64,000 nucleotides of DNA from positions 4,751 through 68,750 of the forward strand of contig JBFWUK010000010.1 in NCBI GenBank assembly GCA_050247355.1. The letters are read 5' to 3'. Source of the stretch: Vicinamibacterales bacterium (GTDB lineage: Bacteria; Acidobacteriota; Vicinamibacteria; Vicinamibacterales; UBA2999). The notes beneath the pieces are model-generated. The model worked only from the letters and a program-made list of their open reading frames with translations, did not search any database and had not been told where the DNA came from. Position numbers and translations under genes: made by a program. Below, piece after piece: positions 6,579-50,621 of the stretch; within the stretch, counting starts at the first letter, position 1, and every line of letters begins with the position of its first letter.

Positions 6579-6955
6579 GCTTCGAGTCGCGCGTCTTGGC
6601 TTTTGCCGAGCGGTTCCTCTCGGACCGCAGCGTGGAACTGATCGTGGCTCCCGCGCTTGCCGACCTGCAGTTCGATCGCGGTGCCGGTCCGCTCAGGCAA
6701 GCCGCGAACTACCTGGCGGTGGTTCGCGCCATTGGCGGCGGGTTGCGCGACGAGGCCGCGCGCGGCTCCGGCTTCTTCCTGGTCCTCACGTTGATGACCG
6801 CCGGCTACAACATCGTGCTGCTGACGCTGTTCGCCGACTTCATCTCGTTGTCATCCAACCTGTTGGGCGTGGCAGTGGGGCTGTTGCTGCTGTCCGTGTG
6901 TCCCGTGGCGGCCTGCTTCTGGCCTCAGCGGCGGCGCGTTCGATCCGCCGACTAA
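6575..6955 (+). CDS. Small membrane protein co-transcribed with the PadR gene
   Basis: ATG at 6575 overlaps the PadR stop (ATGA). The C-terminal half is hydrophobic (FFLVLTLMTAGYNIVLLTLFADFISL..., LGVAVGLLLLSVCPVAACFW). Confidence 0.6.
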   Translation: MSFESRVLAFAERFLSDRSVELIVAPALADLQFDRGAGPLRQAANYLAVVRAIGGGLRDEAARGSGFFLVLTLMTAGYNIVLLTLFADFISLSSNLLGVAVGLLLLSVCPVAACFWPQRRRVRSAD

Positions 6956-6963
6956 GGTTCGCC

Positions 6964-7740
6964 ATGCCCGACCTTCGCGCGGTTCGGCTGTCGAAGTATT
7001 TTTCAGGCGTGCGGGTCGTGAAAGACGCCGACTTCACGCTGCGTCCCGGCGAGATTGTCGGCTATCTCGGGCCGAACGGCTCGGGCAAGAGCACCACCGC
7101 GAAAATGCTGGCCGGCCTGCTCGAACCGTCGGCCGGGCACGTCGAGTACGACGGCCGCGACATTCGCGACGACGTGATCGCGTTCAGGCGGGTGTTGGGC
7201 TACATCCCCGAAGAGCCGTACCTGTATCCATTCCTGTCCGGCAGTGAATACCTGCAGCTGATCGGCCGCCTGCGCGAGATTCCCGACGCGCTGCTGACCA
7301 GGAAGATCGAAGGCTTCCTGGACCTGTTCGGCCTGCGCCCTGCGGCCGACCAGGCGATTTCCTCGTACTCGAAAGGGATGCGCCAGAAGATCGTCATCTC
7401 GGGCGCGCTGCTGCACGACCCCGCGGTGGTGCTGTTCGATGAACCCGAGACCGGCCTCGACGTGGCGACCACGCTGATGCTGCGCCACCTGGTGCGGCTG
7501 CTGGCCGCTCGCGGCAAGGCGATTCTCTACAGCTCGCACATCCTGGAAGTGGTCGAGCGGGTGTGCGACAAGGTGATCGTGCTCCACAAGGGTGAAGTGG
7601 TGGCCGACGATTCCATCGCCAACTTGCGGACGCTGCTGTCGCGGACGTCGCTCGAAGGCGTGTTCTCCGAACTGGTCATTCGGGAAGACCCCGAACGGCT
7701 GGCCAGCGACCTGGCCGAGTTGTCGGCGCTGGGAGCCTAG
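6964..7740 (+). CDS. ABC transporter ATP-binding protein (ABC-2 type)
   Basis: Walker A GPNGSGKST, signature YSKGMRQK, Walker B VVLFDEP. Confidence 0.9.
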   Translation: MPDLRAVRLSKYFSGVRVVKDADFTLRPGEIVGYLGPNGSGKSTTAKMLAGLLEPSAGHVEYDGRDIRDDVIAFRRVLGYIPEEPYLYPFLSGSEYLQLIGRLREIPDALLTRKIEGFLDLFGLRPAADQAISSYSKGMRQKIVISGALLHDPAVVLFDEPETGLDVATTLMLRHLVRLLAARGKAILYSSHILEVVERVCDKVIVLHKGEVVADDSIANLRTLLSRTSLEGVFSELVIREDPERLASDLAELSALGA

Positions 7741-18886: not shown

Positions 18887-20653
18887 ATGTCACGTTTCAT
18901 ATCGCGTTTGATGTTCCCCCTGGTCGTCGCGGCCGTGCTCGCCCCACCGGTGGTGGGCGAGGCGGCCCTTCGACTCCCTGAAGAACCTGACGCTCGCTCA
19001 GGGCAAGCCGCGCAGGCCAGTGCCCCGGCCGCCGGCCATAAGCACTATGACGACTCGAAGGCAGCCGAAGCGCCCGCGCCCGCGCCGGGCATGCCGCTTG
19101 CGCCGCGGTTGCAGAACCTGGGTGTGCACGTGTTCCCGACCAGCACCAAGGTGGCGCGCGCGCAGTTGTTCATGAACCAGGGCGTCAACCTGGCGTTCGG
19201 CTTCAATCACGCCGAGGCCAAGCGCTCGTTCGCCGAAGCGGCGCGTCTCGATCCGACGCTGGCCATGGCGTATTGGGGCCAGGCGCTGGTGATGGGCCCC
19301 AACATCAACGCGCCGATGGTGCCCGAGGCCGAGCCGGTCGCGTTCGACCTGGTGCAGAAGGCCGTGGCCCTGAAGGCCGGGGCGACGCCGCGCGAGCGCG
19401 CGTATATCGACGCGCTGGCCAGGCGCTACACCGGCAAGCCCGAGGATCGCGCCCAGGCCGACCGCGCCTATGCCGAGGCCATGCTGGCCGTCACCCGCGC
19501 CTTCTCGAACGACCTCGACGCGGGCGTGCTGTACGCGGAGGCGCTGATGGACCTGCGCCCCTGGAACTACTGGACGCGCGACGGCCAGCCGTACGCCGAG
19601 ACCGTGCAGGTGCAGGCCGCTCTCGACAAGGTGTTGCAAACCCACAAGAACCACCCGGGCGCGCTGCACCTGTGGATTCACCTGTGGGAGTCGACCGACA
19701 CGCCGGAACGTGCGGAGGCCGAGGCCGATCGGCTGCTGCCGCTGATGCCCGGTGCCGGCCACATGGTGCACATGGCCGCGCACATCTACCAGCGCGTTGG
19801 CCGCCACGCCGACGTGATCAGCTCGAATCTGCTGGCGGCGAAGGCCGACGAGGACTACATCGCGCAGTGCAACGCGCAGGGGCTCTATCCGCTCGGCTAC
19901 TACCCGCACAACCTCCACTTCATCTGGATGGGGGCGACGGCCAGCGGTCAGCGGCAACTGGCGCTCGATTCGGCGCGCAAGCTGGCCGCCGCGGTGCCAG
20001 ACGAGGCGCTGTCGGTCGTGCCGATCCTGCAGGGCTTTGTCGTGGTGCCCTACTGGGCGATGGTTCGCTTCAGTCAATGGGAGCAAATCCTGGCCGACCC
20101 CGGTCCGCGCCACGACAGCGCCTTCTCGCGCAGCGTGTGGAAGTACGCGCGGGCCATGGCGTTCGTCGCAACCGCCCGCCTGGGCGAGGCCGAGACCGAA
20201 CTGGCCGAGCTGAAAACCCTGGTGGCGGATCCGTCGATGAAGGGGCAGATCACCTTCTCGGCCAATAGCGGCTTCGCGGTCATGCGCATTGCCGTCGAGG
20301 TCGTGGCCGGCGAGATTGCCGCGAAGCGGCAGCAGTGGGACCAGGCGGTCCTGCACCTCGATCGCGCCGTCCGCTTCGAGGACGCGCTGGTCTACCAGGA
20401 ACCGCACGACTGGCACGCGCCCGCCCGGCAGAACCTCGCCGCGGTGTTGCTGGCGGCCGGACGCGCCGACGAAGCCGAGACCGTGTTGTGGGAAGACCTG
20501 AAGCGCAACCCCGAACACGGCTGGACGCTGCGGTTGCTCTCGCAGGCGCTGCGCGCCCAGGACAAGAAGGACGAGGCGGCCCTGGTCGATGCCCGGTTCC
20601 GTAAGTCGTGGAAGGGCGACGCCGCGCCGGCGACGTCGGCCCGGGAGCGCTAG
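18887..20653 (+). CDS. Secreted TPR-like/helical-repeat conserved hypothetical protein
   Basis: GGAG-N9-ATG start. Signal peptide MSRFISRLMFPLVVAAVLAPPVVGEA. 588 aa, helical-repeat-like composition. Confidence 0.75.
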   Translation: MSRFISRLMFPLVVAAVLAPPVVGEAALRLPEEPDARSGQAAQASAPAAGHKHYDDSKAAEAPAPAPGMPLAPRLQNLGVHVFPTSTKVARAQLFMNQGVNLAFGFNHAEAKRSFAEAARLDPTLAMAYWGQALVMGPNINAPMVPEAEPVAFDLVQKAVALKAGATPRERAYIDALARRYTGKPEDRAQADRAYAEAMLAVTRAFSNDLDAGVLYAEALMDLRPWNYWTRDGQPYAETVQVQAALDKVLQTHKNHPGALHLWIHLWESTDTPERAEAEADRLLPLMPGAGHMVHMAAHIYQRVGRHADVISSNLLAAKADEDYIAQCNAQGLYPLGYYPHNLHFIWMGATASGQRQLALDSARKLAAAVPDEALSVVPILQGFVVVPYWAMVRFSQWEQILADPGPRHDSAFSRSVWKYARAMAFVATARLGEAETELAELKTLVADPSMKGQITFSANSGFAVMRIAVEVVAGEIAAKRQQWDQAVLHLDRAVRFEDALVYQEPHDWHAPARQNLAAVLLAAGRADEAETVLWEDLKRNPEHGWTLRLLSQALRAQDKKDEAALVDARFRKSWKGDAAPATSARER

Positions 20654-29019: not shown

Positions 29020-29571
29020 TCAGGCGGCCTTCGACCAGGCCGCCTTCGCGAAGGCGCGATCGAGCGGCGTGTCGGCGATGTGATTCGTGTAGTTGGACAG
29101 CGTCTTGACGCTGACCCCGAGGACGACTTCGAGGGCCTGCGCCTTGTCGTAGCCGGCGTTGGCGAACGCGGCCTTCTCTTCGTCGCTCGGCCACCCGCGT
29201 GACACCACGATGGCGGCGGTGAAGCGACGCAAGGCCTCGAGCCGCGGATTGTCGATCGGCTGCCCCGAGCGAATGGCCTGGACCACCGCCTCCGGCACCT
29301 GTTGCATGCCGGCGATCACGCTGTGCGCCGCCACGCAGTACTCGCAGCGATTCTCGTAGCTGGTGGTCAGCAGCACGATTTGCCGCTCCGTGGGGTTGAG
29401 GGAGGTCTCGTCGAAGAGGTCGACGATGGTTCGGTAGGCGCGCAGCAGGGCCGGCGCCTCGGCCATGACGCCCATCAGGTTGGGTACGAAGCCGTAGGAC
29501 TTGTTGACGCCGGCCAGGGTCTCGCGCGCGGCGGCCGGTGCGGTGTCGATCGTGTGCGGGGTGTAACTCAT
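29020..29571 (-). CDS. Carboxymuconolactone decarboxylase (AhpD-like) family protein
   Basis: Internal ATG (MSYTPHTIDT...). CMD motif ENRCEYCVAAH (CxxC-x2-H). Confidence 0.85.
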   Translation of the reverse strand: MSYTPHTIDTAPAAARETLAGVNKSYGFVPNLMGVMAEAPALLRAYRTIVDLFDETSLNPTERQIVLLTTSYENRCEYCVAAHSVIAGMQQVPEAVVQAIRSGQPIDNPRLEALRRFTAAIVVSRGWPSDEEKAAFANAGYDKAQALEVVLGVSVKTLSNYTNHIADTPLDRAFAKAAWSKAA

Positions 29572-29682
29572 GACGGTGCTCCTGTGAATGCAGTCGTGTG
29601 ACGGATGAATGTTCCCGATCAGGATCGGGTCTACAGGTGGGATTCCGCCGCGGGCCCGGCGGTTCAGTCGAATCGTCCGGTC

Positions 29683-29698
29683 TGTGAGCGCGCTCACT
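29683..29698. promoter_or_regulatory. CRP-type palindrome TGTGAgcgcgcTCACT
   Basis: The core GTGAGCGCGCTCAC is a perfect 14-nt palindrome. Lies in the divergent region between genes starting at 29571 (minus) and 29741 (plus). Confidence 0.55.
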
Positions 29699-34090: not shown

Positions 34091-34152
34091 GTTGTCTTCA
34101 GTCCCCGGGCCCCAGTCATCGTTACGCCGCACCTTTGATAGACTCCCGCCGT

Positions 34153-34695
34153 ATGGCGCATATCCCTTACCGGTCCGACCATGAGATTCCCGCCGAAGAC
34201 CGCGTCAACGACACTGACAATATCCTGCGCATTCATGGCGTGCACAGCCGCGTGATGCGCCAGCACTTCGATCTCTATGTCGAGTTGATGCGGCGGCCGG
34301 GTCCGATGACCCGAATCCAGCGCGAGATGATGGCGACCGCCGTGTCGGCGGCCAACGGCTGTCACTATTGAACCCAGCACCACGGAGCGGGTCTCCGTCT
34401 GCTGCTCACACGCGACGGCGTCGCACCGCCGGCCCAGGACGAACTGCTCGAGGCGCTGGTGCACCACCCGGACGCCGCCGCCACCAACGCGCCCGACCGG
34501 GCAATGCTGGCTTACGCGATGAAGCTGACCCGGACACCGGCCGCGATGACCGGCGCCGACGTTGACATGCTCCGCGCGGCAGGCTTCGACGATCGGGCGA
34601 TTCACGACATCTGCACGATCGTGGCCTACTTCGCTTTTGTCAACCGGCTGGCGGACGGACTCGGCGTCGAACTGGAAGAGCGCTTCAACGCCTGA
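34153..34695 (+). CDS. AhpD/CMD-type 'peroxidase-related enzyme', candidate selenoprotein (TGA at 34369-34371 read as Sec)
   Basis: Track ORFs 34135..34371 and 34459..34695 are in the same frame, separated by a single TGA. Read-through gives SAANGCHY-U-TQHHGAG, where the family motif is CxYCxxxH. A SECIS-like hairpin lies downstream. Confidence 0.75.
34375..34404 (+). promoter_or_regulatory. SECIS-like recoding hairpin
   Basis: CAGCA-cc-ACGGAG [CGGGU] CUCCGU-c-UGCUG. The apical loop starts 16 nt after the UGA and has G at its second position. Confidence 0.6.
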
Positions 34696-34706: not shown

Positions 34707-35729
34707 CTATCGCCGCACGATCTCCGTGGCGGGAAAGAACGACCGCCACGAGAACCAGTAAGAGACGAACGCCGGCGTGGCGGTCAGCCGCTGGCCCCTG
34801 AGGGGACCCGACACCGCAAGGCCGTCGTAGCCGTCCCAGTGCGATCCGGTGTCGCGGTCGCGCAGCATCGTCCGGTCGCGCTCGGTTCCCGCGGCTTCAA
34901 AGAGCCGGCCGCCGGTGGCGAACACCCTCGCGCCCGACCGATCGGGCGTCGCCACGATGATGAGACCGCCGGGCACGCCGGCAACCGGCAACACAGGATT
35001 GGTCGTCAGTGCCTCGAGGGCTACGGCGTACGGCCGGCCGTCGAGGCGAAAGCCCAGTACCCTGGCCTTGGCATCCAGGGCGCCGGCCGAGGTCGTGCGG
35101 CCGGTGACGCCGATGCCGCCCTTGGCGTGGTAGCCGTCGTAGCGGTCCCGCGTGCCGTCCATGCCGGCAGGGGTCTGCTTCGACAGCACGACGGTCGCCG
35201 GATGCAGGTTGCGCCACTGCTTCCAGGTCATCATGTCTGATGCCAGCATGGTCAGCACCTGTCCCTTGAGCGGACCGGCAATGGCGGCGCCGGTGGCCTG
35301 GGCCCACCACGAGTCGGTCTGGCGGTCGTACATCACGAGGTTGTCGCGCCAGAGCATGCCGGAGACGCCGAACGTGAGTTCGCGGCCGCCGACCGTGCGG
35401 GCATACACGATGCCCGTGTAGCAGAGCGGTCACCAGGTAACGGTGATCGACCTTCCGCCAATGCTGTCGTTGACGATCTCGTGCCCGTTGAGCAGCCAGG
35501 TCGGGTAGGCGCGGGCGACGCCGCCGATCGCAATGCCGATGACCGGCTCCTCGTCCTGCATGAACGTCGCCTGGCCGGCGGCCACGAAGATCGGCTTGTC
35601 AATCGCCGGGATCGCGTCTTTCGGCAGGCCGCGCACGACCGCGTCGCCGTCAATCGTGGCCTGCTCCGTCCACGACAATTGGGCCGAGATCGCGCCGGCA
35701 AACAACAACCACATCAACATCGTGCGCAT
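34707..35729 (-). CDS. DUF3179-family secreted protein, candidate selenoprotein (TGA at 35430-35432 read as Sec)
   Basis: Track ORFs 35430..35918 and 34707..35408 share a frame, with one TGA between them. Read-through gives ITVTW-U-PLCYTGIVYARTVGGRELTFGVSGMLWRDNLVMYDRQTDSWW, where the family has CPLC. Signal peptide MRTMLMWLLFAGAISA. Start is 35729 or 35741. Confidence 0.75.
35401..35422 (-). promoter_or_regulatory. SECIS-like recoding hairpin
   Basis: On the minus strand: GC-UACACG [GGCAU] CGUGUA-(U bulge)-GC. The loop starts 16 nt after the UGA and begins with GG. Confidence 0.6.
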
Positions 35730-35819
35730 TTGGAACCTCATCGGGCGGAGGGACGACGTCCCCCTAGTGGTGTCAGTATGGCCGTGCCGCCCGGCCGGGA
35801 ACCCGCAATTTCTGAATTG

Positions 35820-35835
35820 TGTGATCTGGAACACA
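35820..35835. promoter_or_regulatory. CRP-type palindrome TGTGAtctggaACACA
   Basis: 9/10 match to TGTGA-N6-TCACA. Lies in the divergent region between the DUF3179 gene (minus) and the TlpA-like gene (plus). Confidence 0.45.
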
Positions 35836-35905
35836 GCGCGCCACCGGCGGCTGGGCCACGATCGACCGGGAGCGGCTGACTTTGCCGCGTCTCGGGGGGA
35901 ATGGG

Positions 35906-36472
35906 ATGTCACACTCATCGATCGGTCGTTGGTCCGTTGCCGGACTGCTCACCGCCGGCATGGCGATCGCGCTTGGGACCGAGGCCGCCGGCCGGCAACC
36001 CCAAGCGAACCGCGGTGCCGCGTCCAGGAGCGGGCTGTTCACGGCCGCGCCAGAGCCGCTCCCGGCATTCACCGCCCGGACGCTCGACGACCGGACCCTG
36101 CGCTCCGCCGAGTGGCGCGGCAAGGTCACGATTGTGAACTTCTGGGCGACCTGGTGCGCTCCGTGCCGTGCGGAGATTCCCGACCTGATCAGGTTGCAGA
36201 CCAAGTATCGCGACCACCTGCGGATCATCGGCTTCTCGGCGGATGAGGGCGACCCGACACCGGTCAGGAATTTCATCGCGGCCATGAAGATGGATTTCCC
36301 GAATGTGAGGGTGACACCGCAACTCGACCGGTTGTTCGGTGGGGTGCACGCCCTGCCGATGACCCTGCTGGTCGATCGCGAGGGCAGGATTGTCAAGAAG
36401 CACATGGGGGCCATCGACGCGAGATCGGTGGAAGCCGAGGTGCGCGCGCTGGCGGGACTGCCGCCGGGGTGA
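35906..36472 (+). CDS. TlpA/ResA-family thiol-disulfide oxidoreductase
   Basis: VTIVNFWATWCAPCRAEIP with a thioredoxin fold and an N-terminal signal/anchor (WSVAGLLTAGMAIALG). Confidence 0.9.
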   Translation: MSHSSIGRWSVAGLLTAGMAIALGTEAAGRQPQANRGAASRSGLFTAAPEPLPAFTARTLDDRTLRSAEWRGKVTIVNFWATWCAPCRAEIPDLIRLQTKYRDHLRIIGFSADEGDPTPVRNFIAAMKMDFPNVRVTPQLDRLFGGVHALPMTLLVDREGRIVKKHMGAIDARSVEAEVRALAGLPPG

Positions 36473-36525: not shown

Positions 36526-36756
36526 CTACCGCCGCCAGTTACGAAAGCGCTCGAGCAGCTCGGGACTCACCGGCGGCGGCGCCGGTGAGTCGCCCAGCGC
36601 GCCTATCGAATCGATGGTGGACTTCATCTGCCGCACATAGGTCCGGCAATGCCGGCACATGCCCAGGTGCATGTGAAAGCGCAGACGCTGCATCATCGAC
36701 TGGCGGCCCTCGAGATAGTCGGTAACCAGCTCAGTCACTTCCTGGCATGTCAGCAT
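36526..36756 (-). CDS. zf-HC2 anti-sigma factor (76 aa, no TM segment)
   Basis: CQEVTELVTDYLEG...HMHLGMCRHCRTY is the H-x3-C-x2-C zinc motif. Overlaps the stop of the upstream ECF sigma gene. Confidence 0.85.
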   Translation of the reverse strand: MLTCQEVTELVTDYLEGRQSMMQRLRFHMHLGMCRHCRTYVRQMKSTIDSIGALGDSPAPPPVSPELLERFRNWRR

Positions 36757-37418
36757 GGTGAGCCCTTCAGCGCGTACTGTTCGAGTGCGGACCGGAGCCG
36801 CGACCGCCCCCGGTGCAACAGTACCCGCTGATTGGTCTCGGAGATCTCCAGGATATTACACACCTCGGCGGCGTCGAGTCCCTCTACGTCACGCAGTGTC
36901 ACCACCGCCCGCTGGTTCGGCGGCAAGGCGGCGAGGGTGGTTGCCACGACGGCCAGGGCTTCTCCGCGCAGGAACAACTTTTCGGGCGTGTCGCCGTCCC
37001 AGCCTGTCGGCGGCGACACCCACGCTCCACCGGCGGTGAACCGATCCGGATCGACCGCCGGTTCGTCAGGATCGGCCGACGACAGTTCCGAGAACGTCAC
37101 GGTCCGTTTCTCCCGAACCGCCCGGCTCTTCGCGCGGTTGGCCACGATGGCGAAGATCCAGCTCTTGAGCGCGGAGCGGCCCTGAAACGTCGGCAAGCCG
37201 TTCAGCACGGCCACCCACGTGTCCTGCACCACCTCCTCGGCCACCTCCCGATTCGCCACAAACACTTGCGCAAAGTGGATAAGGGGCGTGTGCAGACGTT
37301 CCACCAGCGCCGAGAAGGCGGCTTCGTCACCGGCTAGCAGCCGTCGAACGAGCGCCAGGTCGCCAGGTGAGGCGATGCCGCCGCCGGAAGCTGGGGACGT
37401 AAGAGCCATCAGCGGCAT
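36750..37418 (-). CDS. ECF-type RNA polymerase sigma factor
   Basis: Region 2 (FSALVERLHTPLIHFAQVFV...AEEVVQDTWV) and region 4 (LPPNQRAVVTLRDVEGLDAAEVCNILEISETNQRVLLHRGRSRLR). Confidence 0.9.
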   Translation of the reverse strand: MPLMALTSPASGGGIASPGDLALVRRLLAGDEAAFSALVERLHTPLIHFAQVFVANREVAEEVVQDTWVAVLNGLPTFQGRSALKSWIFAIVANRAKSRAVREKRTVTFSELSSADPDEPAVDPDRFTAGGAWVSPPTGWDGDTPEKLFLRGEALAVVATTLAALPPNQRAVVTLRDVEGLDAAEVCNILEISETNQRVLLHRGRSRLRSALEQYALKGSPC

Positions 37419-38269: not shown

Positions 38270-38953
38270 TTAGACCACCGCGCGCAGCCGAACGGGGTCT
38301 TTGATGCGGATGTTCTGCCGGCTGCTCTCGACCAGGCCTCGTTGTTTCAGGTCCTGCAAGACGATATTCACCGTCTCTCGAGCCAGGCCAACAAGGTTGC
38401 CGAGGTCGCCCTGGTTGAGGCGAATCGGAATCAAGATCCCGTCGTCGTCCTTGACTCCGTAGTCCGCGGCGAGGTCGAGCAGGGTGTTCGCGATGCGCGC
38501 GTGCGCGCTCTTGAACAGCAACTCCTCGACCCGGGTGCGGAGGCGGCGCAGGCGCATTCCCATCAACTTGGTAATCTGGTAACCGAGCGCGGGCGACTGC
38601 TGGATCATCTGCAGCAGCATGTCGCGATTGAGCGCGCAGAGGACGGTGTCTTCGACCACTTCGGCGACATGATCGCGCGGCGCCTCGTCGAGGATCGCCA
38701 GTTCGCCGAAGATGTCGCCCGGATAGAGCAGCGCCAGGATGGTGTCTTGTTCGGCGCCGCCGGTGGAGATCTTCACGACGCCGGTCTTGAGCAGGAAAAT
38801 CTGGTCGCTGGGGTCACCCGGCAGATAGATGCGCTGGCCGCGCTTCAACTCGAGCATCCGCGCCATCTTCTCGACCGCATGCTTCTGCCCGTCGGTCAGG
38901 GCATCCATCAATCGAAAACGCTGCAAGTACCAGAGTTTGGTGTGGGCGGCCAT
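38270..38953 (-). CDS. Crp/Fnr-family transcriptional regulator
   Basis: cNMP-binding-type barrel (GDIFGELAIL) and C-terminal HTH GDLGNLVGLARETVNIVLQDLKQRGLV, with a CRP-like R-E pair in the recognition helix. No N-terminal Cys cluster. Confidence 0.9.
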   Translation of the reverse strand: MAAHTKLWYLQRFRLMDALTDGQKHAVEKMARMLELKRGQRIYLPGDPSDQIFLLKTGVVKISTGGAEQDTILALLYPGDIFGELAILDEAPRDHVAEVVEDTVLCALNRDMLLQMIQQSPALGYQITKLMGMRLRRLRTRVEELLFKSAHARIANTLLDLAADYGVKDDDGILIPIRLNQGDLGNLVGLARETVNIVLQDLKQRGLVESSRQNIRIKDPVRLRAVV

Positions 38954-38971: not shown

Positions 38972-39226
38972 CTACTCCGGCGGCCGGTCCAATCGGCCAG
39001 CAAGATCCGCCATGCGGGGAATGCCGTACAGCGCCGGACCGCCATCAATCACCACCGCCGGCGTGGCGATCAGGCCGTAGCGGTTGGCCTCGCCGAGATG
39101 GTGAGCGACGTCCAATTCGGTGACCGCGACGTCCGTCCTGTCCGCCGCCAGCTGCCTGACGACCTGCCGCGCTTCGGGACAGCCGACGCAGTGCTCGCTG
39201 TAGAAGAACTCCACCCGGTGAGTCAT
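38972..39226 (-). CDS. Small thioredoxin/glutaredoxin-like protein
   Basis: MTHRVEFFYSEHCVGCPEA (CxxC), then IATPAVVIDG. 84 aa. Lies immediately upstream of the crp-family gene on the same strand. Confidence 0.75.
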   Translation of the reverse strand: MTHRVEFFYSEHCVGCPEARQVVRQLAADRTDVAVTELDVAHHLGEANRYGLIATPAVVIDGGPALYGIPRMADLAGRLDRPPE

Positions 39227-39258
39227 TGCCTCACGATAGGCGCTCGCCGCGGCCATCG

Positions 39259-39274
39259 CTGTGACGCTCCTCAC
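39259..39274. promoter_or_regulatory. CRP-type palindrome gcTGTGAcgctccTCACTgt
   Basis: 9/10 match. Lies in the divergent region between the trx-like/crp operon (minus) and the oxidoreductase gene at 39338 (plus). Confidence 0.55.
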
Positions 39275-39337: not shown

Positions 39338-40864
39338 ATGCAGTCACTGTCTGCCATCGACCGCCTTGTCGAGCCGCTCGACGCAGCCAACCAGGCGCTG
39401 CTGCGGGCCGTTCATCCCCCTGAGTGGCAGAACCCCGAGCCGCATGATGTCTACGATCTGGTCGTGCTCGGAGGCGGGACCGCCGGCCTGGTCAGCGCGG
39501 TTGGTGCGGCCGGTCTTGGCGCGCGGGTGGCCCTGGTCGAGCGGGCCTTGCTCGGCGGCGACTGCCTCAACACTGGTTGTGTCCCGTCAAAGGCGCTGAT
39601 TCGCTCGGCCCGCGCCATCGCCGATGCGCGCCGCGCCGCCCGGCTTGGCGTCCGGGTCGGCTCGGTCGAGCCCGACTTCGCCGCGATCATGGGTCGAATG
39701 CGAGAGCGGCGCGCGTGTATCAGCGCTAACGACTCGGCCCAGCGGCTTCAGCGCGCGGGCGTGGATGTCTTCCTCGGCAGCGGAGCATTTACCAGCGGGC
39801 GCACGCTCGATGTCGCGGGCTTGACCCTGAAGTTCAACCGCGCCGTCATCGCCACCGGCGCCCGCCCGGTTGCCCCACCGGTGCCCGGCCTCGACGGCGT
39901 GCCGTTCCTCACGAACGAAACCGTGTTCGGGCTCACCGACCTGCCGCCGCGGCTGGCGGTGATTGGGGTGGGACCGATTGGCTGCGAGTTGGCGCAGGCG
40001 TTTGCACGATTCGGCAGCGAAGTCACGCTGCTCGGCCGGGAATTGCACGTGCTGCCAAACGAAGATGCTGACGCGGCCGCGATCGTGCAACGCCAACTCC
40101 TGGACGATGGCGTGCGGTTGGAATTGGGCGTTGAACTGATCGACGCCAGGCGCGACCAGGCCGGTGTGCGGATTCGCTACGAACGGCGCGGTATGACCGC
40201 GGCCGGAGAGGTGACGGCCGATCACGTGCTCCTGGCCGCGGGCCGGGCGCCGAATGTGGAAGGCCTCGGCCTGGATCAGGCCGGCGTCCGCGTCTCAGCG
40301 GCGGGCGTCGTCGTGAACGATCGCATGCAGACGTCTAGCCGGCGCATCTACGCCGCCGGGGACGTGTGTTCGAGGCACAAGTTTACCCACGCCGCCGACG
40401 CCCAGGCGCGCATCGTCATTCAGAACGCGCTGTTCTACGGGCGCAAGCGTGCCAGCCGGCTGGTCGTGCCGTGGTGTACCTACACTGATCCAGAGATCGC
40501 GCACGTCGGGATGTACGAGGCCGAGGCCCGCCAGCAAGGACTCGACGTCAAGACCATCACCATTCACCTGGCGGACGTGGATCGGGCGCTGCTGGACGAC
40601 GAGGCCGAGGGGTTCGTGCGTGTGCACCATGTGGCCGGCCGGCTGGTCGGTTGCACGATCGTCGCGGCGCATGCCGGCGAGTTGATCGGTGAGGCCACCT
40701 ACGTGGTCACGCACGGCGGCACGCTGGCCGACCTGGCGGCGACGATTCACCCCTACCCGACCCAGGCCGAGGCGCTCAAGAAAGCCGGCGACGCCTACCG
40801 CCGGGAATCGCTGACGCCGTCGGTGAAGCGATGGTTCGAACGCTATTTTCGCTGGACTCGCTAA
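39338..40864 (+). CDS. FAD-dependent pyridine nucleotide-disulfide oxidoreductase (mercuric reductase/dihydrolipoamide dehydrogenase-like)
   Basis: Internal ATG at 39338. VVLGGGTAGL, redox-active GGDCLNTGCVPSK, and a second dinucleotide fold IGVGPIGCE. The 971-aa track ORF is an artefactual extension. Confidence 0.9.
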   Translation: MQSLSAIDRLVEPLDAANQALLRAVHPPEWQNPEPHDVYDLVVLGGGTAGLVSAVGAAGLGARVALVERALLGGDCLNTGCVPSKALIRSARAIADARRAARLGVRVGSVEPDFAAIMGRMRERRACISANDSAQRLQRAGVDVFLGSGAFTSGRTLDVAGLTLKFNRAVIATGARPVAPPVPGLDGVPFLTNETVFGLTDLPPRLAVIGVGPIGCELAQAFARFGSEVTLLGRELHVLPNEDADAAAIVQRQLLDDGVRLELGVELIDARRDQAGVRIRYERRGMTAAGEVTADHVLLAAGRAPNVEGLGLDQAGVRVSAAGVVVNDRMQTSSRRIYAAGDVCSRHKFTHAADAQARIVIQNALFYGRKRASRLVVPWCTYTDPEIAHVGMYEAEARQQGLDVKTITIHLADVDRALLDDEAEGFVRVHHVAGRLVGCTIVAAHAGELIGEATYVVTHGGTLADLAATIHPYPTQAEALKKAGDAYRRESLTPSVKRWFERYFRWTR

Positions 40865-40868
40865 CGGC

Positions 40869-41573
40869 TCAGGCCGGCGGCGCGTTCAATTGTTCGTCCA
40901 GAGCCCGCTGGGCCGCGCGGGTTACCAGCACGACGACCAGCACGGTCGAGAGCAGGCCGACGCCGGTCAGGATCAACTTCTGTGGCGACTCGGCCTGGCC
41001 GGCCGCGGTCAGCTCGGCCGCGGTCGTGGCCAGCGAGCCGAGATAGACATACAGCCAGGTGCCCGGCAGCATGCCCACGAACGACGCCACGACGTAGCGG
41101 CCGACCTTGGCCTCCGTCAGGCCGAGGGCATAGTTCAGGACGTTGAACGGAATGACCGGCGACAGCCGGAGCAGGAGGATCAACTTGAAGCTGTTCCTGC
41201 CGATGGCGGTGTCGAGCGCCCGGGCCTTTGGGTAGCGATGCATTCTTGTCCGGATCCAGTCACGAAGCACCGTGCGTCCAAGCAGGAAGGCAACCGTCGC
41301 CGCCAGTACGCTCGCCGGCGAGGCCACGAGCAGCCCGCCAACCGGGCCGTAGGCGAAGCCCGCCGCCAGGGTGAACAGCGACCCCGGCAACAGGGCGACT
41401 TCGGCGACCACGTAGATGGCAATGAACAGGGCAATGCCGGCCCAGCCCATGCTGCGCAGGCGATCGGCGAGGGCGATGGTCCACTGCGCCACCGGCAGCT
41501 GCCACAGGAGGAAGGCCGCCACGGCCAACCCGCCAGCGATCGTCACGAACTTGAGCGGTCTACTCGTGTTCAC
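40869..41573 (-). CDS. TVP38/TMEM64 (DedA/SNARE-associated) family membrane protein
   Basis: 234 aa, multi-TM, with a LPGSLFTLAAGFAYG block typical of the family. Commonly partnered with the preceding oxidoreductase type. Confidence 0.75.
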   Translation of the reverse strand: MNTSRPLKFVTIAGGLAVAAFLLWQLPVAQWTIALADRLRSMGWAGIALFIAIYVVAEVALLPGSLFTLAAGFAYGPVGGLLVASPASVLAATVAFLLGRTVLRDWIRTRMHRYPKARALDTAIGRNSFKLILLLRLSPVIPFNVLNYALGLTEAKVGRYVVASFVGMLPGTWLYVYLGSLATTAAELTAAGQAESPQKLILTGVGLLSTVLVVVLVTRAAQRALDEQLNAPPA

Positions 41574-41651
41574 GTCGAACAGCTACTGTATCGACATCCT
41601 TCGGGTCGGCGGCGGCCAGATTGCCAACTTGGAGGAGTGAATGCCGCAACC

Positions 41652-41744: not shown

Positions 41745-42116
41745 ATGACTCTGCACCGTCTCACCGATCTCGACCAGCTTGATGCCGCCTTCGCACGTTC
41801 CGCGGCCGCGCCGGTCCTCATCTTCAAGCACAGCCCCACCTGCGGCATCAGCGCCCAGGCCCACGAGGAGGTCGCGAGCCTGGCGGCTGAAACCGGGCTG
41901 CGCGCCGAGGTCTGCCTGGTCATCGTCCAGGAGGATCGCCGGGTCTCGAACGAGATCGCCCGGCGCCTCAATCACCGCCATGCGTCGCCCCAGGTCCTGC
42001 TGGTGCAGGGCGGCGTCCTCCAGTGGCATGCCTCGCACTTTCGCGTAACCGGACAGGCCATCAGGGCCGCGCTCGGGCGCACGCAGCCGCCCCGACCAGA
42101 TCTTTTCCACCCGTGA
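41745..42116 (+). CDS. ytxJ: YtxJ-like monothiol thioredoxin-fold protein (DUF2847)
   Basis: PVLIFKHSPTCGISAQA with the single-Cys TCxIS motif, then SPQVLLVQGG. 123 aa. Confidence 0.75.
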   Translation: MTLHRLTDLDQLDAAFARSAAAPVLIFKHSPTCGISAQAHEEVASLAAETGLRAEVCLVIVQEDRRVSNEIARRLNHRHASPQVLLVQGGVLQWHASHFRVTGQAIRAALGRTQPPRPDLFHP

Positions 42117-43372
42117 CCGATCGCCGCACCGCGCATGTCAGCGCCGTGATGCTGCTGATGACGGCGGCCTTCATGCTCGCGCGTACCGGGCGCGATGCCT
42201 GGTATTTCCAGCAGGGCGGCATTCAGTCACTGCCGTTCGCGTATCTGGGCATGGCGCTGCTCGCACTGCCGATGGCGGCGTTGCTGCTGTCCATGGTGCG
42301 GGTCATGGGCATCCGCCGGACCCGCGTGGTCGCGGTCGCGGCGATGACGGCCGTGCTCGCCGCCGCGGGGCTGGCCGGCCGTCCGGGCGGCGGTCCGGCC
42401 ATGACGCTGTTCTTCGTGCTCGTGCCGGTGGTATTCGGCGGCCTGTTCTCGCTGTCGTGGCTGCTGGCCGGCGAGATCATCGGACGCGATTCGCCAGATC
42501 TGGTGCGGGCATTCAGCCGCACCGCCGCAGCTTCGATCCTGGGCGGACTGTTCGGCGCCGGCCTGGCCCGCGGCTTGGCCCCGTGGCTGGCGCCGCGCGG
42601 ACTGTTGCTGATCAGCGCCGCGACCCTGGCAGCAGCGCTGCTGGCCATCGCCCTGACCCACCGACGCTTTCCGCCGATTGAGGTGGCGGCGCCCACTGGC
42701 CCGATTGTCGCCCGGCCGGCCTTTGCCACGGCGCTCGCTGAGCCGTACGTCCGCTTGCTGCTGTCGATTGCCGCACTGGCCGCCTTCTCCGGTGTCTTGA
42801 TCGAGTTCCTGTTCTATCAGGCCGCGTCGTCGTGCCCGGGCGGTCCAGCCGAACGGATCGCGTTGTTCGCGAACTTCTATATCGGTCTCGGCGTGGCGGG
42901 GTTGGCTATCCAGTGGTTCGTCGCCGCCCGCCTGCAGGCCGCCATCGGCCTGGCCGGCTCACTCCTGATACTGCCAGGCGCCATCGTCGGGCTGATGCCG
43001 GCGGTCATCGGCTTCGCATCCGGGATCATGCCCGCGGTATTGCGGCTGACCGAGGGCGGGCTGAAGGCGTCGCTGCATCGTTCGAGCTGGGAGCAGACCT
43101 ATCTGGCCATTGGTCCCGGCTGCCGCACCGAGGCAAAGCTGCTGGTCGACGGCGTGGGCACCCGGCTGGCCGAGGGCCTTGGTGCCGCACTCCTCTTCGT
43201 GGGACCGGCGGCGGTTCGGGACGGATCTGGTTCAAGTGCCTTCATCCCGGCGTTGGTCGTGGCCGGCGTGGCGTGGCTGGTTCTGACACTGCGGGCGCGA
43301 CGCTACCTCGGGTCGGGCGAAGGCATGGTCACGGACCCGGCAGAGTGCTACGCACGCATGCCCGATTCCTGA
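42113..43372 (+). CDS. TLC/NTT-like (ATP:ADP antiporter family-like) MFS-type transporter, paralog 1
   Basis: GTGA overlap with ytxJ. Polytopic protein. The block TLFFVLVPVVFGGLFSLSWLLAGEIIGRDSPDLVRAFSRTAAASILGG parallels the TLC signature region seen in paralog 2. Confidence 0.5.
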   Translation: MTDRRTAHVSAVMLLMTAAFMLARTGRDAWYFQQGGIQSLPFAYLGMALLALPMAALLLSMVRVMGIRRTRVVAVAAMTAVLAAAGLAGRPGGGPAMTLFFVLVPVVFGGLFSLSWLLAGEIIGRDSPDLVRAFSRTAAASILGGLFGAGLARGLAPWLAPRGLLLISAATLAAALLAIALTHRRFPPIEVAAPTGPIVARPAFATALAEPYVRLLLSIAALAAFSGVLIEFLFYQAASSCPGGPAERIALFANFYIGLGVAGLAIQWFVAARLQAAIGLAGSLLILPGAIVGLMPAVIGFASGIMPAVLRLTEGGLKASLHRSSWEQTYLAIGPGCRTEAKLLVDGVGTRLAEGLGAALLFVGPAAVRDGSGSSAFIPALVVAGVAWLVLTLRARRYLGSGEGMVTDPAECYARMPDS

Positions 43373-44854: not shown

Positions 44855-46071
44855 GGCGCATCATGGTGGTGGTGGCGGTTTGGGCTGGTCTCGCGGCCGG
44901 GCTCGGCGCCCAGACTCCCGCCGAAGCCCCACTCCAGCCACCGGCAGACAGCCGCGCGGCGCTGAGCGACCAGGCGCGGTTAGCGAAGGCCGCCACCCTG
45001 ACGCCCGAGGTGTTATCCACCTGGGAGCGCCGCGTGCTTGCGCTCGAGGCGCGGAACTTCCCGCGCCATCTGTTTGTTGATGAGTACAACGGTGTGCGAA
45101 CGCTGATCGGCGGCATGCCATCGGGATCCGGTGTCGCCGCCGGCGTCGGCTACATGGCCGGAGCGACCGGCGAACGGCTTCGATTCAACGTCGGCGCGCG
45201 GTGGTCGATCGAGCACTACCGGCAGCTCGACGCCGAGGCGCTGCGGCCGAGCCGGAGCGGCCGCCCGTTTCAGGTCCGGATACACGGTCGCTACGCGGAC
45301 TACCGCGCGCTGGATCTGTTCGGACTGGGCCACCGTTCGTCGCCCGATGCGAAAGCCGCGTATCGCTTTGAAAGCCGCACCGCGTCGGTCAGCGTCTCGC
45401 GATGCGCCGGCCGGCGGATCGCCATCGGCGCCGAGAGTGGCGTGCTGAACGGGTCGGTGCGATCTTTCGACGGCGGCCGTGGCCGGTTGCCCGAGCTTCC
45501 CGGCGCGACCCTTCAGCCGACGTTCGTGTTCGGCGGCGGTCATGTGGCGCTGACGCTGAGAGATGGCGCGCTCAGGTTCGCCGGCGTGCGCCTGCGCCTC
45601 GACGCCACGCGATGGGTCGATGTCGACGGCGAGAACTTTGACTTCACACGCCTGGTTGGTGAACTGCAGACCCACCTGCCGCTCGGTGCCCGCAATCGGA
45701 TGCTGGCGCTTCGCCTGCGCACCTCTCACTCGATCGCCGACACCGGCGCGAGCGTGCCGTTCTATCTCATGGAGACACTGGGCGGGGCGACGAGCGTTCG
45801 AGGCTTCGATGAGCGTCGGTTCCGCGACACCCACAATGTGGTGGCCAACGCGGAGTATCGGTGGGAGGTCTGGAATTACGCCGACCTGGCGATCTTCGGC
45901 GATGTTGGCCGCGTCTTCTCGCGCGCCGATCGCTTTGCCTGGTCCGGATTTGCCGCCGGTTACGGCATCGGACTCCGATCGGTGCTGCCAGGAGGCGGCG
46001 GGTTCCGGATCGACGTGGCCCGCGGACGGGAAGGTTTCAGATTGCATATCGGCGGGGGGGCGGCGTTCTGA
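44851..46071 (+). CDS. Outer-membrane beta-barrel protein (bacterial surface antigen/Omp85-like C-terminal domain)
   Basis: ATGA overlap with the transporter gene. Signal peptide MRRIMVVVAVWAGLAAGLGA. The C-terminus has alternating beta-strand text ending in F (GFRLHIGGGAAF). Confidence 0.65.
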   Translation: MRRIMVVVAVWAGLAAGLGAQTPAEAPLQPPADSRAALSDQARLAKAATLTPEVLSTWERRVLALEARNFPRHLFVDEYNGVRTLIGGMPSGSGVAAGVGYMAGATGERLRFNVGARWSIEHYRQLDAEALRPSRSGRPFQVRIHGRYADYRALDLFGLGHRSSPDAKAAYRFESRTASVSVSRCAGRRIAIGAESGVLNGSVRSFDGGRGRLPELPGATLQPTFVFGGGHVALTLRDGALRFAGVRLRLDATRWVDVDGENFDFTRLVGELQTHLPLGARNRMLALRLRTSHSIADTGASVPFYLMETLGGATSVRGFDERRFRDTHNVVANAEYRWEVWNYADLAIFGDVGRVFSRADRFAWSGFAAGYGIGLRSVLPGGGGFRIDVARGREGFRLHIGGGAAF

Positions 46072-47714
46072 TGCGTCGACCATTCGCGGCGATCGTGTTC
46101 GTGGCACTGGCGGCCACCGTCGCCCTGGCGGGCCAGGGCCACCAGCGGCGCTTCTATCCGGACGACCCGCAGTGGGTCGACCGCGACACACACGACGTGC
46201 CGGCGACACCGGCGGCGATCGAGCTGAGCGACCTGTACGACCGCTTCCGCCACATCATCGCGCTGCCGGGCGCGAAGACACCGGGCGAGTCGCGCAACGT
46301 CAACACGCTGGGTGAGGTCCCTGACAGCTCGTGGTACCAGAACCGCCACGCCGCGCAGCGGATGTCGATCGCCGAACTCGTGAGGGGGCCCGACACGACC
46401 GGCGGGCCTGACCTGACCAGTCCGTGGCGGGTGGTCCGCGGCAAGACCCAGGGCTTGACCCCGGGCTTCGACATCCTTGACGGGCGTGGCCATCGCTACG
46501 TCATCAAGCTCGATCCGTTCGACCTGCCTGAGTTGAGTTCGTCGGCTGAGGTCATCAGCACCAAAATCTTCCATGCGCTCGGGTACTACACGCCGGAGAA
46601 CTACATCGTCCTCGTGGATCCCGCCAGGTTGATGATCGAACCAGGCACGCTCGTCGCCGACGAACTGGGTACGAAACGACCGCTGACGCCTGAACGGCTG
46701 GCCGGCCTTTTGCGCGACGCGCCTCGTCGAGCCGACGGACGGATCCGCGTGACCGCCAGCTTGTTCGTCAGCGGGAAGCCAATCGGCCCCTTCCGCTACT
46801 TCGGGACCAGGAGTGACGACCCCAACGACGTGATTCCCCATGAGGATCGGCGGGAGTTGAGAGGCTTGCGGGTGTTCTCGGCGTGGCTGAACCACGACGA
46901 TACGCGTGCCCAGAACACCCTGGATTCGTGGGTTCAGGTGGGCGATGCCCACTACGTCCGGCACCATTTGATCGACTTCGGTTCAACCCTGGGCAGCGGC
47001 AGCATTGAAGCGCAGCTGCCATGGCTGGGATTCGACTACTGGCTGGATCCCGGCCTGCTGAAGCGCAACGCCCTCGGCTTTGGCACCCATGTGCCTGCGT
47101 ATCACCGGGTGCGGTTCCCGTCGTATCCGTCCGTGGGCCGGTTCGAGGCCGAGGCTTACCAGCCCCACGCGTGGAAGAACGACTACCCGAACCCGGCGTT
47201 TGTCCGCATGACCGAACGCGACGCCTTCTGGGCGACCAAGACCCTGATGGCCTTCACGCGTGAAGAATTGGCGGCCATCGTCGCGACCGGGCAGTATACC
47301 GACGCGGCCGCCGAAGCTTACGTGCTGCGTACGCTGGTCAAGCGGCAGCAGAAGACCGGCGCCTACTATCTCGCCCGCTCGAACCCCCTCGACGAATTCA
47401 CGGTGGCTGGCGCCGAGTTCCGGTTCGTCAACCTGGCAGATAAGTACGGCCTGGCCGGCGCCGGAACCCAGTACCACGTGGAATGGTCGACCTACGACGA
47501 CGCGACCGGGGCCTCCGAGTTGCTGGCGGCCGGTGCCATCGTCGACCGTCCACGGTCACAGCTCCCGGAAGTCCCTCTGCCGGTCGGCGCGAGCCGATAC
47601 CTCAAGGTGGTCGTGCGCTCGCTTCACACCGACTTTCCGGCCTGGTCCGCACCAATCGCGGTGTTCCTGCGGACCGTCGGCAACGGCTACGAGGTCGTGG
47701 GCGTTGAGCGCTGA
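46071..47714 (+). CDS. Signal-peptide protein with protein-kinase-like / PI3-PI4-kinase-like catalytic motifs
   Basis: TGATG overlap with the OMP gene. Signal MRRPFAAIVFVALAATVALAG. Motifs in canonical order: RYVIK (K146, 46506-46508), SAEVISTKIF (helix-C-like Glu), WLNHDDTRAQN (HxDxxxxN, 46893-46916) and HHLIDFGSTLG (DFG, 46974-46982). Confidence 0.55.
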   Translation: MRRPFAAIVFVALAATVALAGQGHQRRFYPDDPQWVDRDTHDVPATPAAIELSDLYDRFRHIIALPGAKTPGESRNVNTLGEVPDSSWYQNRHAAQRMSIAELVRGPDTTGGPDLTSPWRVVRGKTQGLTPGFDILDGRGHRYVIKLDPFDLPELSSSAEVISTKIFHALGYYTPENYIVLVDPARLMIEPGTLVADELGTKRPLTPERLAGLLRDAPRRADGRIRVTASLFVSGKPIGPFRYFGTRSDDPNDVIPHEDRRELRGLRVFSAWLNHDDTRAQNTLDSWVQVGDAHYVRHHLIDFGSTLGSGSIEAQLPWLGFDYWLDPGLLKRNALGFGTHVPAYHRVRFPSYPSVGRFEAEAYQPHAWKNDYPNPAFVRMTERDAFWATKTLMAFTREELAAIVATGQYTDAAAEAYVLRTLVKRQQKTGAYYLARSNPLDEFTVAGAEFRFVNLADKYGLAGAGTQYHVEWSTYDDATGASELLAAGAIVDRPRSQLPEVPLPVGASRYLKVVVRSLHTDFPAWSAPIAVFLRTVGNGYEVVGVER

Positions 47715-49438: not shown

Positions 49439-49685
49439 GAAGCGTCTCTCCCTGAATCTGGTCTGTTGAGCCGGCCAGTCGTTACAAGCCGTAGTCGCGG
49501 CCCTTGTCACCGTGCCGGTTCAGCTCCGTCATCCGCGGCTCTGGGCGTCACGAATGGTCACGGGCGGGCAGTTCCTGTAACAGACGACCGGCGCGTTGGA
49601 CTGATGCTCTGGCACAGGATGGTTGCCGACCTGGACGGGCGACGTCCGGCAACCTGACCGGCGACGCAGTTGACTGGGGGCACTC

Positions 49686-50621
49686 GTGAAAAGACTGATG
49701 GCGGCGGCGATCGTGGTGACGGCTACCACCGTAGCAACCTTGGCGCAGGCCGCGCCGATCGTGGCCGAGGTGCGGGCGGCCATCGCAAACAACGACTTCG
49801 CGCGCGGCGACACGGTGCTGGCGGCACACCGCAAGGCCCATGGCGTGACGCCCGAGATGCTGGAAGCGCTCTCGTGGATGGGGCGAGGCACGCTGGCCGC
49901 AAGACGGTTCGAACTGGCGGAGCGGTACGCCACCGAAACCTACCAACTGTCAGCGGAGCTGCTCAAGCGTCGCGAGCTCGATGACGAGCCCCGCCTGCCA
50001 ATCGCCATCGGCGCGGCGATCGAGGTGCTGGCCCAGGCCGAGGCCCAGCGTGGGGCCAGGACCGAGGCCGTGCTCTTTCTCGGCCGCGAGCTGGCCAATT
50101 TCAAGGGCACGTCGATCGAGAAGCGGATTCAAAAAAACATCAACTTGCTCAGCCTCGTCGGGACGCCGGCGCCGGCCATCGAGACCGCCGACCATCTCGG
50201 ACCGCCGCCGCCGGCCGTCGCCAGCCTGACAGGAAAGGTCGTGCTGCTGTTCTTCTGGGCGCACTGGTGTCCCGACTGCAAGGCGGAGGCGCCGATTCTG
50301 GCGCGCCTATCCGATACCTACGCCGCCAAAGGGCTAGTCATCCTCGCGCCGACGCAGCGCTTCGGCTATGTGGCGGGGGGCAAGCCGGCATCGCCGGACG
50401 AGGAAGTGCGCTACATCGACCAGGTGCGCCAGGCGTCCTATCCGGTGCTGGCGGGTCACGCGATTCCGTTGAGCACGACCAACCACATTCGCTACGGCGT
50501 CAGTACCACGCCGACCCTCGTCCTGGTCGATCGGACCGGCATCATCCGGCTGTATCGCCCCGGCGCCATGAGCCACGAGCAACTCGAGCCCCTCGTAAAG
50601 GCACTGCTCGATCCGTCCTGA
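49686..50621 (+). CDS. Secreted helical (TPR-like) domain plus TlpA-family thioredoxin domain protein
   Basis: Signal MKRLMAAAIVVTATTVATLAQA. C-terminal VVLLFFWAHWCPDCKAEAP and TTPTLVLVD. Confidence 0.85.
   Translation: MKRLMAAAIVVTATTVATLAQAAPIVAEVRAAIANNDFARGDTVLAAHRKAHGVTPEMLEALSWMGRGTLAARRFELAERYATETYQLSAELLKRRELDDEPRLPIAIGAAIEVLAQAEAQRGARTEAVLFLGRELANFKGTSIEKRIQKNINLLSLVGTPAPAIETADHLGPPPPAVASLTGKVVLLFFWAHWCPDCKAEAPILARLSDTYAAKGLVILAPTQRFGYVAGGKPASPDEEVRYIDQVRQASYPVLAGHAIPLSTTNHIRYGVSTTPTLVLVDRTGIIRLYRPGAMSHEQLEPLVKALLDPS

Follow-up and report, generated by a model that had tools for sequence, protein, structure and literature searches.

A DUF3179 protein with a probable selenocysteine in its UPLC motif, encoded among redox and stress-regulatory genes of a Vicinamibacterales bacterium

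A 64,000-nucleotide stretch of a Vicinamibacterales genome (assembly GCA_050247355.1, contig JBFWUK010000010.1, positions 4,751 to 68,750 of the forward strand; hereafter the window) carries on its minus strand a reading frame of 345 codons, 35741..34707, with one internal stop, a TGA at 35432..35430. The frame encodes 344 amino acids plus the stop codon (34707..35741, minus strand) and its translation belongs to the DUF3179 family (Pfam PF11376). We consider it very probable that this region is one gene, that its product is a secreted DUF3179 protein, and that the UGA at 35432..35430 is decoded as selenocysteine (Sec, U). The two halves of the frame correspond to the open reading frames (ORFs) 35430..35918 and 34707..35408; a preliminary description of this DNA had read them as sharing one frame and being split by the TGA, and translation bears this out. 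When U is read as Cys, the PF11376 match scores 274.4 bits (cut-off 27; E = 1.6e-81) and spans profile positions 1-292 of 292, running uninterrupted across the TGA. The predicted Sec codon (35430..35432, minus strand) specifies residue 104 and occupies the first position of the motif U-P-L-C (35432..35421), in the translated context IGGRSITVTW-TGA-PLCYTGIVYARTVGG. The conserved block of the protein reads W-C-P-L-C, with the TGA at the first Cys, followed by FGVSG...L.MYDR.T.S.W. An alternative start, ATG 35729, has GAGG 6 nt upstream and would be at least as likely as 35741, perhaps better.

Both strands of the window were scanned for TGA codons lying in coding-type base composition with 70 stop-free codons on each side. 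The scan yielded two candidate sites, 35432 on the minus strand and 34369 on the plus strand, the latter within a convergent gene described below. Two other TGAs were rejected, one at 24691, which is an ordinary gene junction, and one at 39344-39346, which sits between separate genes and is not an internal codon. The predicted genes of the window end in TGA more often than in any other stop codon; the genome therefore uses the standard code, and a special signal is required for an internal TGA to be read through.

The identity of the residue at the TGA was examined in relatives from a collection of 5.8 billion proteins. The search returned 2099 relatives, and the best 120 clusters (90% identity) were inspected. 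All 63 full-length homologues among these 120 clusters have W-C-P-L-C at the TGA column. The remaining 57 are proteins of ~230 amino acids that start (M/V)YAR..., a few residues past the motif, and U is absent from all 120 clusters. Such ~230-residue calls starting after the TGA are the signature of unrecognised selenoproteins. Because 57 of the 120 closest clusters are truncated in this way and none contains U, the Sec forms of DUF3179 are systematically mis-annotated; NCBIfam has no model for the family. In a 54-sequence alignment, C104, P105, L106, and C107 are invariant.

The same column was then read in the DNA of 80 loci from species-representative genomes, which span at least eight phyla. 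The first-Cys codon of CPLC is TGA at 60 sites and TGC or TGT at 19. This tabulation, together with the 63 full-length homologues, confirms the earlier proposal that the TGA replaces the first Cys of the motif. Loci with TGA come from Vicinamibacterales and further Acidobacteriota, Terriglobia, Bryobacterales, Dehalococcoidia, Anaerolineae, Planctomycetota, Desulfuromonadales and further Desulfobacterota, Methylomirabilota, and Binatia, among other groups. The Sec motif varies across loci as UPLC, UHLC, UPLS, UPLA, and UPLT, and a Cys-form variant reads CPLT. One complete Terriglobia chromosome (OZ253536.1) carries both a Cys paralogue (locus L010) and a Sec paralogue (locus L015).

The closest relatives of the window gene, loci L001 and L002, share 85-87% identity with it (L001, 87%). 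Between the window gene and L001, the 95 codons upstream of the TGA differ by 32 synonymous and 13 non-synonymous changes, and the 100 codons downstream differ by 31 and 9, respectively. Because purifying selection acts on either side of the TGA, both halves are translated in the same frame. Were the TGA instead a true stop, the region would be a pseudogene, the result of a sequencing or assembly error, or a fragment of ~103 amino acids followed by a 233-amino acid protein initiated at GTG 35408. This codon is a possible start, and gene callers annotate such 230-amino acid proteins in many assemblies. However, the TGA recurs at 60 sites in independent assemblies, the part upstream of it is under purifying selection equal to that on the downstream part, and the Pfam domain is unbroken across it. 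Moreover, the 233-amino acid piece would have neither the signal peptide nor the sole invariant Cys motif, and a hairpin-preserving choice of synonymous codons, described in the next paragraph, is confined to the TGA forms. We regard a pseudogene, a sequencing error, and a pair of separate genes as effectively excluded and give a true stop almost no credence.

Downstream of the TGA, minimum free energy folding and covariation predict a selenocysteine insertion sequence (SECIS) hairpin, CGGGCAU[CGUGU]AUGCCCG, at 35398..35416 (minus strand). Its 5' arm CGGGCAU occupies 35416..35410, the apical loop CGUGU 35409..35405, and the 3' arm AUGCCCG 35404..35398, the helix beginning 13 nt and the loop 21 nt past the UGA. 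Covariation was assessed on 57 distinct Sec-form sequences aligned without gaps, with 500 shuffles. In this helix, 91.7% of the cells are paired and 38 cells are changed on both sides, and none of the 500 shuffles matches the paired fraction, the double-change count, or the covariation score. When the helix partners are slid by 1-3 columns, pairing falls to 16-50%. Relative to the commonest pair, two-sided changes are found in four of the seven pairs, with G-C changed to U-A in 16 sequences and A-U to G-C in 13. In many cases the compensatory changes are silent at the protein level, as where Thr ACG to ACU is matched by Arg CGC to AGA. All seven pairs are present in 41 of the 57 Sec forms compared with 1 of 19 Cys forms (Fisher p = 2.5e-7), and the loop CGUGU in 48 of 57 compared with 3 of 19 (p = 1.1e-7); the Val codon of the loop is preferentially GUC rather than GUG in the Cys forms. 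A few homologues have the loop GGUCU. No Rfam family matches the hairpin.

A SECIS-like hairpin after the UGA had been part of the preliminary description, and one does exist and covaries in orthologues, but the register proposed for it was wrong. That register, UACACG[GGCAU]CGUGUA, is possible in the window sequence, but it is paired in 75% of cells across the 57 Sec forms and rises above the shuffles by no measure; the covarying helix is the overlapping one, with the loop CGUGU at 21 nt and not GGCAU at 16 nt. The bulged U attributed to the hairpin is not conserved.

The bSECISearch consensus calls for a G at loop position 1 or 2 and for a loop lying 16-37 nt past the UGA. Judged by this consensus and by the E. 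coli fdhF element, the geometry of the DUF3179 hairpin fits the bacterial SECIS model.

Several observations weigh against Sec decoding of this UGA. The genes selA, selB, and selD and a tRNA-Sec were not found in the 64-kb window, in which ARAGORN and Rfam detected a tRNA-Arg only. Likewise, Pfam found no SelA, SelB, or SelD domains in the 30 predicted window genes, a scan in which a few ORFs had no match and outside which some short stretches lay. No tRNA-Sec turned up in the 80 related loci either, and the searchable literature contains no experimental evidence of selenium in any DUF3179 protein. In addition, the window sequence by itself folds no better than shuffled sequence (z = -1.26), the arm sequence is partly constrained by the conserved peptide T-G-I-V-Y-A-R, and the Cys form L010 retains seven of seven pairs, with G-U pairs among them, which may reflect a recent switch from Sec to Cys. 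Because the folding energy of the single sequence is unremarkable, the support for the hairpin is comparative and not thermodynamic. Because the window has no Sec machinery, Sec insertion is something that we infer; some Acidobacteria do decode Sec (PMC1794560).

The lack of visible Sec machinery in the window would also suit recoding of the UGA by an opal-suppressor tRNA, either a SelC*-type tRNA-Cys or an acidobacterial allo-tRNA, that inserts Cys or Ser instead of Sec. Both kinds of suppressor tRNA are on record (PMC5389517): allo-tRNAs from Acidobacteria, and SelC* tRNA-Cys from anaerobic members of other phyla. However, the TGA and the hairpin are conserved over at least eight phyla, not all of which carry such tRNAs, and the hairpin matches a SelB-binding SECIS in both its form and its position. 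Moreover, DUF3179 is already classed as a selenoprotein family, and the search of the window detected no suppressor tRNA. We regard suppression as highly improbable. Sec decoding would follow the standard bacterial pathway, in which the 7-bp hairpin with its loop CGUGU, embedded in the coding sequence for Y-T-G-I-V-Y-A-R, would be offered to SelB·GTP·Sec-tRNA(Sec) while the ribosome stands at the UGA. SelB would then deliver Sec at the UGA, and termination would be avoided.

The DUF3179 stop codon lies 11 bp from the end (34695) of a convergent gene, an AhpD/CMD-family 'peroxidase-related' gene (34135..34695, plus strand) recognised by a profile match (TIGR01926, E = 1.6e-34). Within it, the motif G-C-H-Y-TGA-T-Q-H-H has an in-frame TGA (34369-34371), and a hairpin, ACGGAG[CGGGU]CUCCGU, lies at 34382-34398 and shows compensatory changes in locus L072. 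L001-L003 and L072 keep this TGA, and L018 has Cys at the position. The AhpD-like/CMD CxxU family is likewise catalogued as a selenoprotein family (PMC9312934, PMC13188914). Of 75 loci, 5 have an AhpD-like gene no more than 4 kb from DUF3179, and the tail-to-tail adjacency is found in L001-L003 only. The suggestion of a convergent selenoprotein pair 11 bp apart is upheld in that both TGAs are conserved with hairpins, but the pairing is limited to the closest relatives, and we rejected the tail-to-tail arrangement as a family-wide module.

The DUF3179 protein begins with a putative Sec-type signal peptide, MRFQMRTMLMWLLFAGAISA followed by Q (35682..35741, minus strand), read from the translation. 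Its homologues have equivalent hydrophobic N termini, and no twin-arginine motif is present in the N terminus of the protein. The AlphaFold model of a homologue, P0003 (Cys form, 60% identical), has a predicted local distance difference test (pLDDT) score of 92 and a predicted template modeling (pTM) score of 0.90 and is almost all beta, with a low-confidence N-terminal helix. The profiles of the N- and C-terminal halves align with an hhalign probability of 99.8% (E = 2e-28). By sequence comparison, DUF3179 is an internal tandem duplication of a beta domain of ~130 residues (residues ~55-190 and ~205-344). Both copies share the motif D-x-x-T-x-S-x-W-x4-G-x-A-x-x-G-x-L-x-G, whereas (U/C)PLC is found in the first copy only. 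Of the two homologous all-beta domains, the first would accordingly carry the U-P-L-C motif, and the signal peptide would export the product to the periplasm.

Searches by sequence found no solved structure better than E = 0.38, and Foldseek against the PDB gave no match at E ≤ 0.001 and no global match. The local Foldseek matches, of 90-120 residues, are to Rieske ferredoxins and the NirD small subunit (probability 0.92-0.99, E = 0.05-0.5). Membership of the Rieske family was rejected, as no Rieske Pfam match was obtained at E ≤ 10 and hhalign against BphF-type Rieske ferredoxins gave a probability of 4.8%. A reading of H87...C104-x-x-C107 as Rieske boxes I and II is likewise unsupported, since hhalign weakly aligned the box I region to D-x-E-T-G-S-x-W. 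There is also no thioredoxin-family Pfam match to DUF3179, and a thioredoxin-fold oxidoreductase was rejected on the grounds that the model is almost all beta and consists of two homologous domains.

Divergently transcribed from the DUF3179 gene is a TlpA-like thioredoxin-fold protein with the motif WCAPC (35906..36472, plus strand; Pfam AhpC-TSA, Redoxin, and Thioredoxin_8), which agrees with the TlpA-family gene named at this position in the preliminary description and which we regard as a candidate periplasmic reductant of DUF3179. Farther along lie a zf-HC2 anti-sigma factor (36526-36756, minus strand; Pfam) and an extracytoplasmic function (ECF) sigma factor (36750-37418, minus strand; Pfam Sigma70_r2/r4_2), a pair that is a candidate for the regulators of an envelope-stress cluster. 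These are followed by a Crp-family regulator gene (38270-38953), a small thioredoxin/glutaredoxin-like ORF with the motif CVGC (38972-39274, minus strand; judged by eye), a MerA-like oxidoreductase (39338..40864, plus strand; Pfam Pyr_redox_2 and Pyr_redox_dim), and a VTT/DedA membrane protein (40869-41579, minus strand; Pfam VTT_dom). The MerA-like flavoprotein disulfide reductase of the window has no C-terminal Cys pair. Other redox genes in the window are a CMD-family protein (29020-29694, minus strand) and a Redoxin/TlpA-like protein (49674-50618, plus strand); neither of these two nor the ORF at 38972-39274 contains an in-frame TGA. The long window ORFs 7741-9492, 18887-20650, 41891-43369, and 45813-47711 (+) have a good coding signature and no Pfam match at E ≤ 1e-5.

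The neighborhood of DUF3179 was surveyed by clustering the ORFs within 4 kb of the gene in 75 loci and annotating cluster representatives. A MerA-like pyridine-nucleotide-disulfide oxidoreductase is the most frequent neighbor (19 of 75 loci), followed by a TlpA-like thioredoxin and an ECF sigma factor (12 loci each), a Crp-family regulator (9), and a VTT/DedA-DUF547 membrane protein (8). A zf-HC2 anti-sigma factor, a peroxiredoxin-like protein, DsbD, and bufferin-type genes (DoxX, DUF2063) are each found in 7 loci.

A palindrome of CRP/FNR type, TGTGT-N6-TCACA, lies at 35820..35835 (minus strand) in the 164-bp intergenic region between the divergent DUF3179 and TlpA-like genes. Upstream of DUF3179, 10 of 75 loci have a match of 9/10 or better to the palindrome, compared with 0.66 expected from shuffles and 0 of 79 in an in-gene (coding) control. 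The palindrome at 35820-35835 is a candidate operator.

The bufferin-type neighbors are best seen in locus L012 (6293-12177), where a DUF2282 precursor, an MbnB/TglH-type enzyme of the multinuclear nonheme iron-dependent oxidase (MNIO) family, DUF2063, DoxX, an ECF sigma factor, a zf-HC2 anti-sigma factor, and a Sec-form DUF3179 are encoded on the same strand. A distant CTLC paralogue follows the Sec-form gene in this locus. Six further loci (L003, L005, L011, L021, L024, and L028) have DoxX and DUF2063 genes within 4 kb of DUF3179. Bufferins are peptides that chelate copper (PMC11626156, PMC12452194), and we found no published mention of an association between bufferin operons and DUF3179. 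In the Terriglobia locus L041, the TlpA-like neighbor of a Sec-form DUF3179 (6877-7680) is a fusion of CusF (E = 2.3e-13) and Redoxin.

The searchable literature contains no functional study of DUF3179 or PF11376. The signal peptide, the duplication, and the gene clusters suggest a periplasmic redox or copper-stress role. We infer likewise the export of the protein, its redox partner, its regulators, and its physiological role, including the catalytic redox role of the CPLC/UPLC motif. The reading to which we lean, tentatively and at a little short of even chances, is that the Sec selenolate would be the attacking nucleophile of a periplasmic selenol/thiol oxidoreductase that is reduced by TlpA and acts in an envelope stress response. 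The selenolate would be kept reduced by the TlpA-like thioredoxin, which would itself be fed by DsbD/CcdA-type transporters. Expression would fall within an envelope stress response controlled by the ECF sigma factor and Crp, probably one tied to copper or oxidative stress. Because the UxxS, UxxA, UxxT, and CxxT variants keep the first motif position only, the Sec or Cys at that position is more readily understood as an attacking nucleophile than as half of an obligatory metal pair. Two things count against an oxidoreductase: the fold is not that of thioredoxin, with no solved structure or characterised homologue to support a redox function, and each partner family is found in a minority of loci (10-25%).

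The main functional rival is soft-metal binding, in which U-x-x-C would be a site for Cu(I), or for Hg or Au, and the protein a periplasmic metal chaperone or sequestering selenoprotein of a copper-stress regulon. Much of the genomic context is in keeping with this: DoxX and DUF2063, the bufferin-type markers, lie within 4 kb of DUF3179 in seven loci, with a complete operon in L012; the bufferins themselves chelate copper (PMC11626156, PMC12452194); CusF is fused to the TlpA-like neighbor in L041; and the most frequent neighbor, in 19 of 75 loci, is a MerA-like flavoprotein. In addition, several catalogued UxxC selenoproteins are metal transport or binding proteins. However, UPLS, UPLA, UPLT, and CPLT do not have the second thiol that a bidentate metal site requires, no bufferin operon lies beside the gene in the window, and Pfam detects no metal-binding domain in DUF3179. 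Copper stress also demands periplasmic disulfide repair, so that the context fits either function. We consider metal binding rather unlikely.

A broader and more speculative proposal, which we rate as improbable, combines these elements. DUF3179 would be a periplasmic selenoprotein of copper or soft-metal stress, an accessory to bufferin (a peptide of the MNIO ribosomally synthesized and post-translationally modified peptide, or RiPP, class) and ECF-sigma systems, built from a duplicated, cluster-less Rieske-like domain whose site either binds Cu(I) or repairs periplasmic thiols damaged by copper, with electrons from TlpA and DsbD. If true, this would assign a role to a widespread domain whose function is unknown and would account for the dominance of the Sec form in soil Acidobacteriota and Chloroflexota.

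Sec-containing DUF3179 is not new. Reviews from 2022 and 2026 (PMC9312934, PMC13188914) already list DUF3179 (PF11376) with one Sec, the motif UxxC/T, and example accessions. Both credit Zhang & Gladyshev 2007 (PMC1976440). Because the reviews already list Sec DUF3179, the present case is a correct call within a known selenoprotein family and of low novelty. The domain duplication, the extent of the Sec form and its mis-annotation, the precise SECIS, and the link to a bufferin/ECF/Crp regulon may be new. Sec DUF3179 is apparently among the more widespread selenoproteins of soil Acidobacteriota, Chloroflexota, Planctomycetota, and Desulfobacterota. The practical value is that nearly half of the closest clusters (57 of 120) are mis-called in public metagenome-assembled genome data. 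Moreover, the signal peptide, the duplication, the ECF-sigma, Crp, TlpA, DsbD, and MerA-like neighbors, and the position at the end of the bufferin operon of L012 are testable leads on DUF3179 function.

Several known systems resemble parts of this gene and its setting. Like the SECIS of Escherichia coli fdhF, the DUF3179 hairpin lies inside the coding region, 13 nt after the UGA, and has a small loop containing G-U; however, its loop is CGUGU and not GGUC, and it has no conserved bulged U. The AhpD/CMD CxxU selenoproteins similarly replace a redox-motif Cys with Sec and have a SECIS-like hairpin at similar spacing, whereas their fold is unrelated to that of DUF3179, they are probably cytoplasmic, and their Sec is at the second motif position. 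The periplasmic reductive pathways that run from DsbD/CcdA through TlpA/DsbC-type thioredoxins to client proteins offer a parallel, in that DUF3179 pairs a signal peptide with a CxxC-type motif and has TlpA-like genes (12 loci) and DsbD genes (7 loci) as neighbors, in a setting of envelope stress. However, DUF3179 does not have the thioredoxin fold, and the association is seen in a minority of loci. Rieske/NirD-type beta domains appear to share a local fold resemblance with the DUF3179 model, which is a resemblance only, as DUF3179 has neither the CxH/CxxH ligands nor a twin-arginine translocation (Tat) signal. The closest counterparts are the catalogued DUF3179 selenoproteins themselves, which belong to the same Pfam family and have the same single Sec at the first position of the only CxxC motif, with the TGA aligned with the homologue Cys and a stem-loop downstream. 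What distinguishes the present case from them is that the window copy comes from a Vicinamibacterales-like acidobacterium and that UxxS, UxxA, and UHLC forms are seen across the loci.

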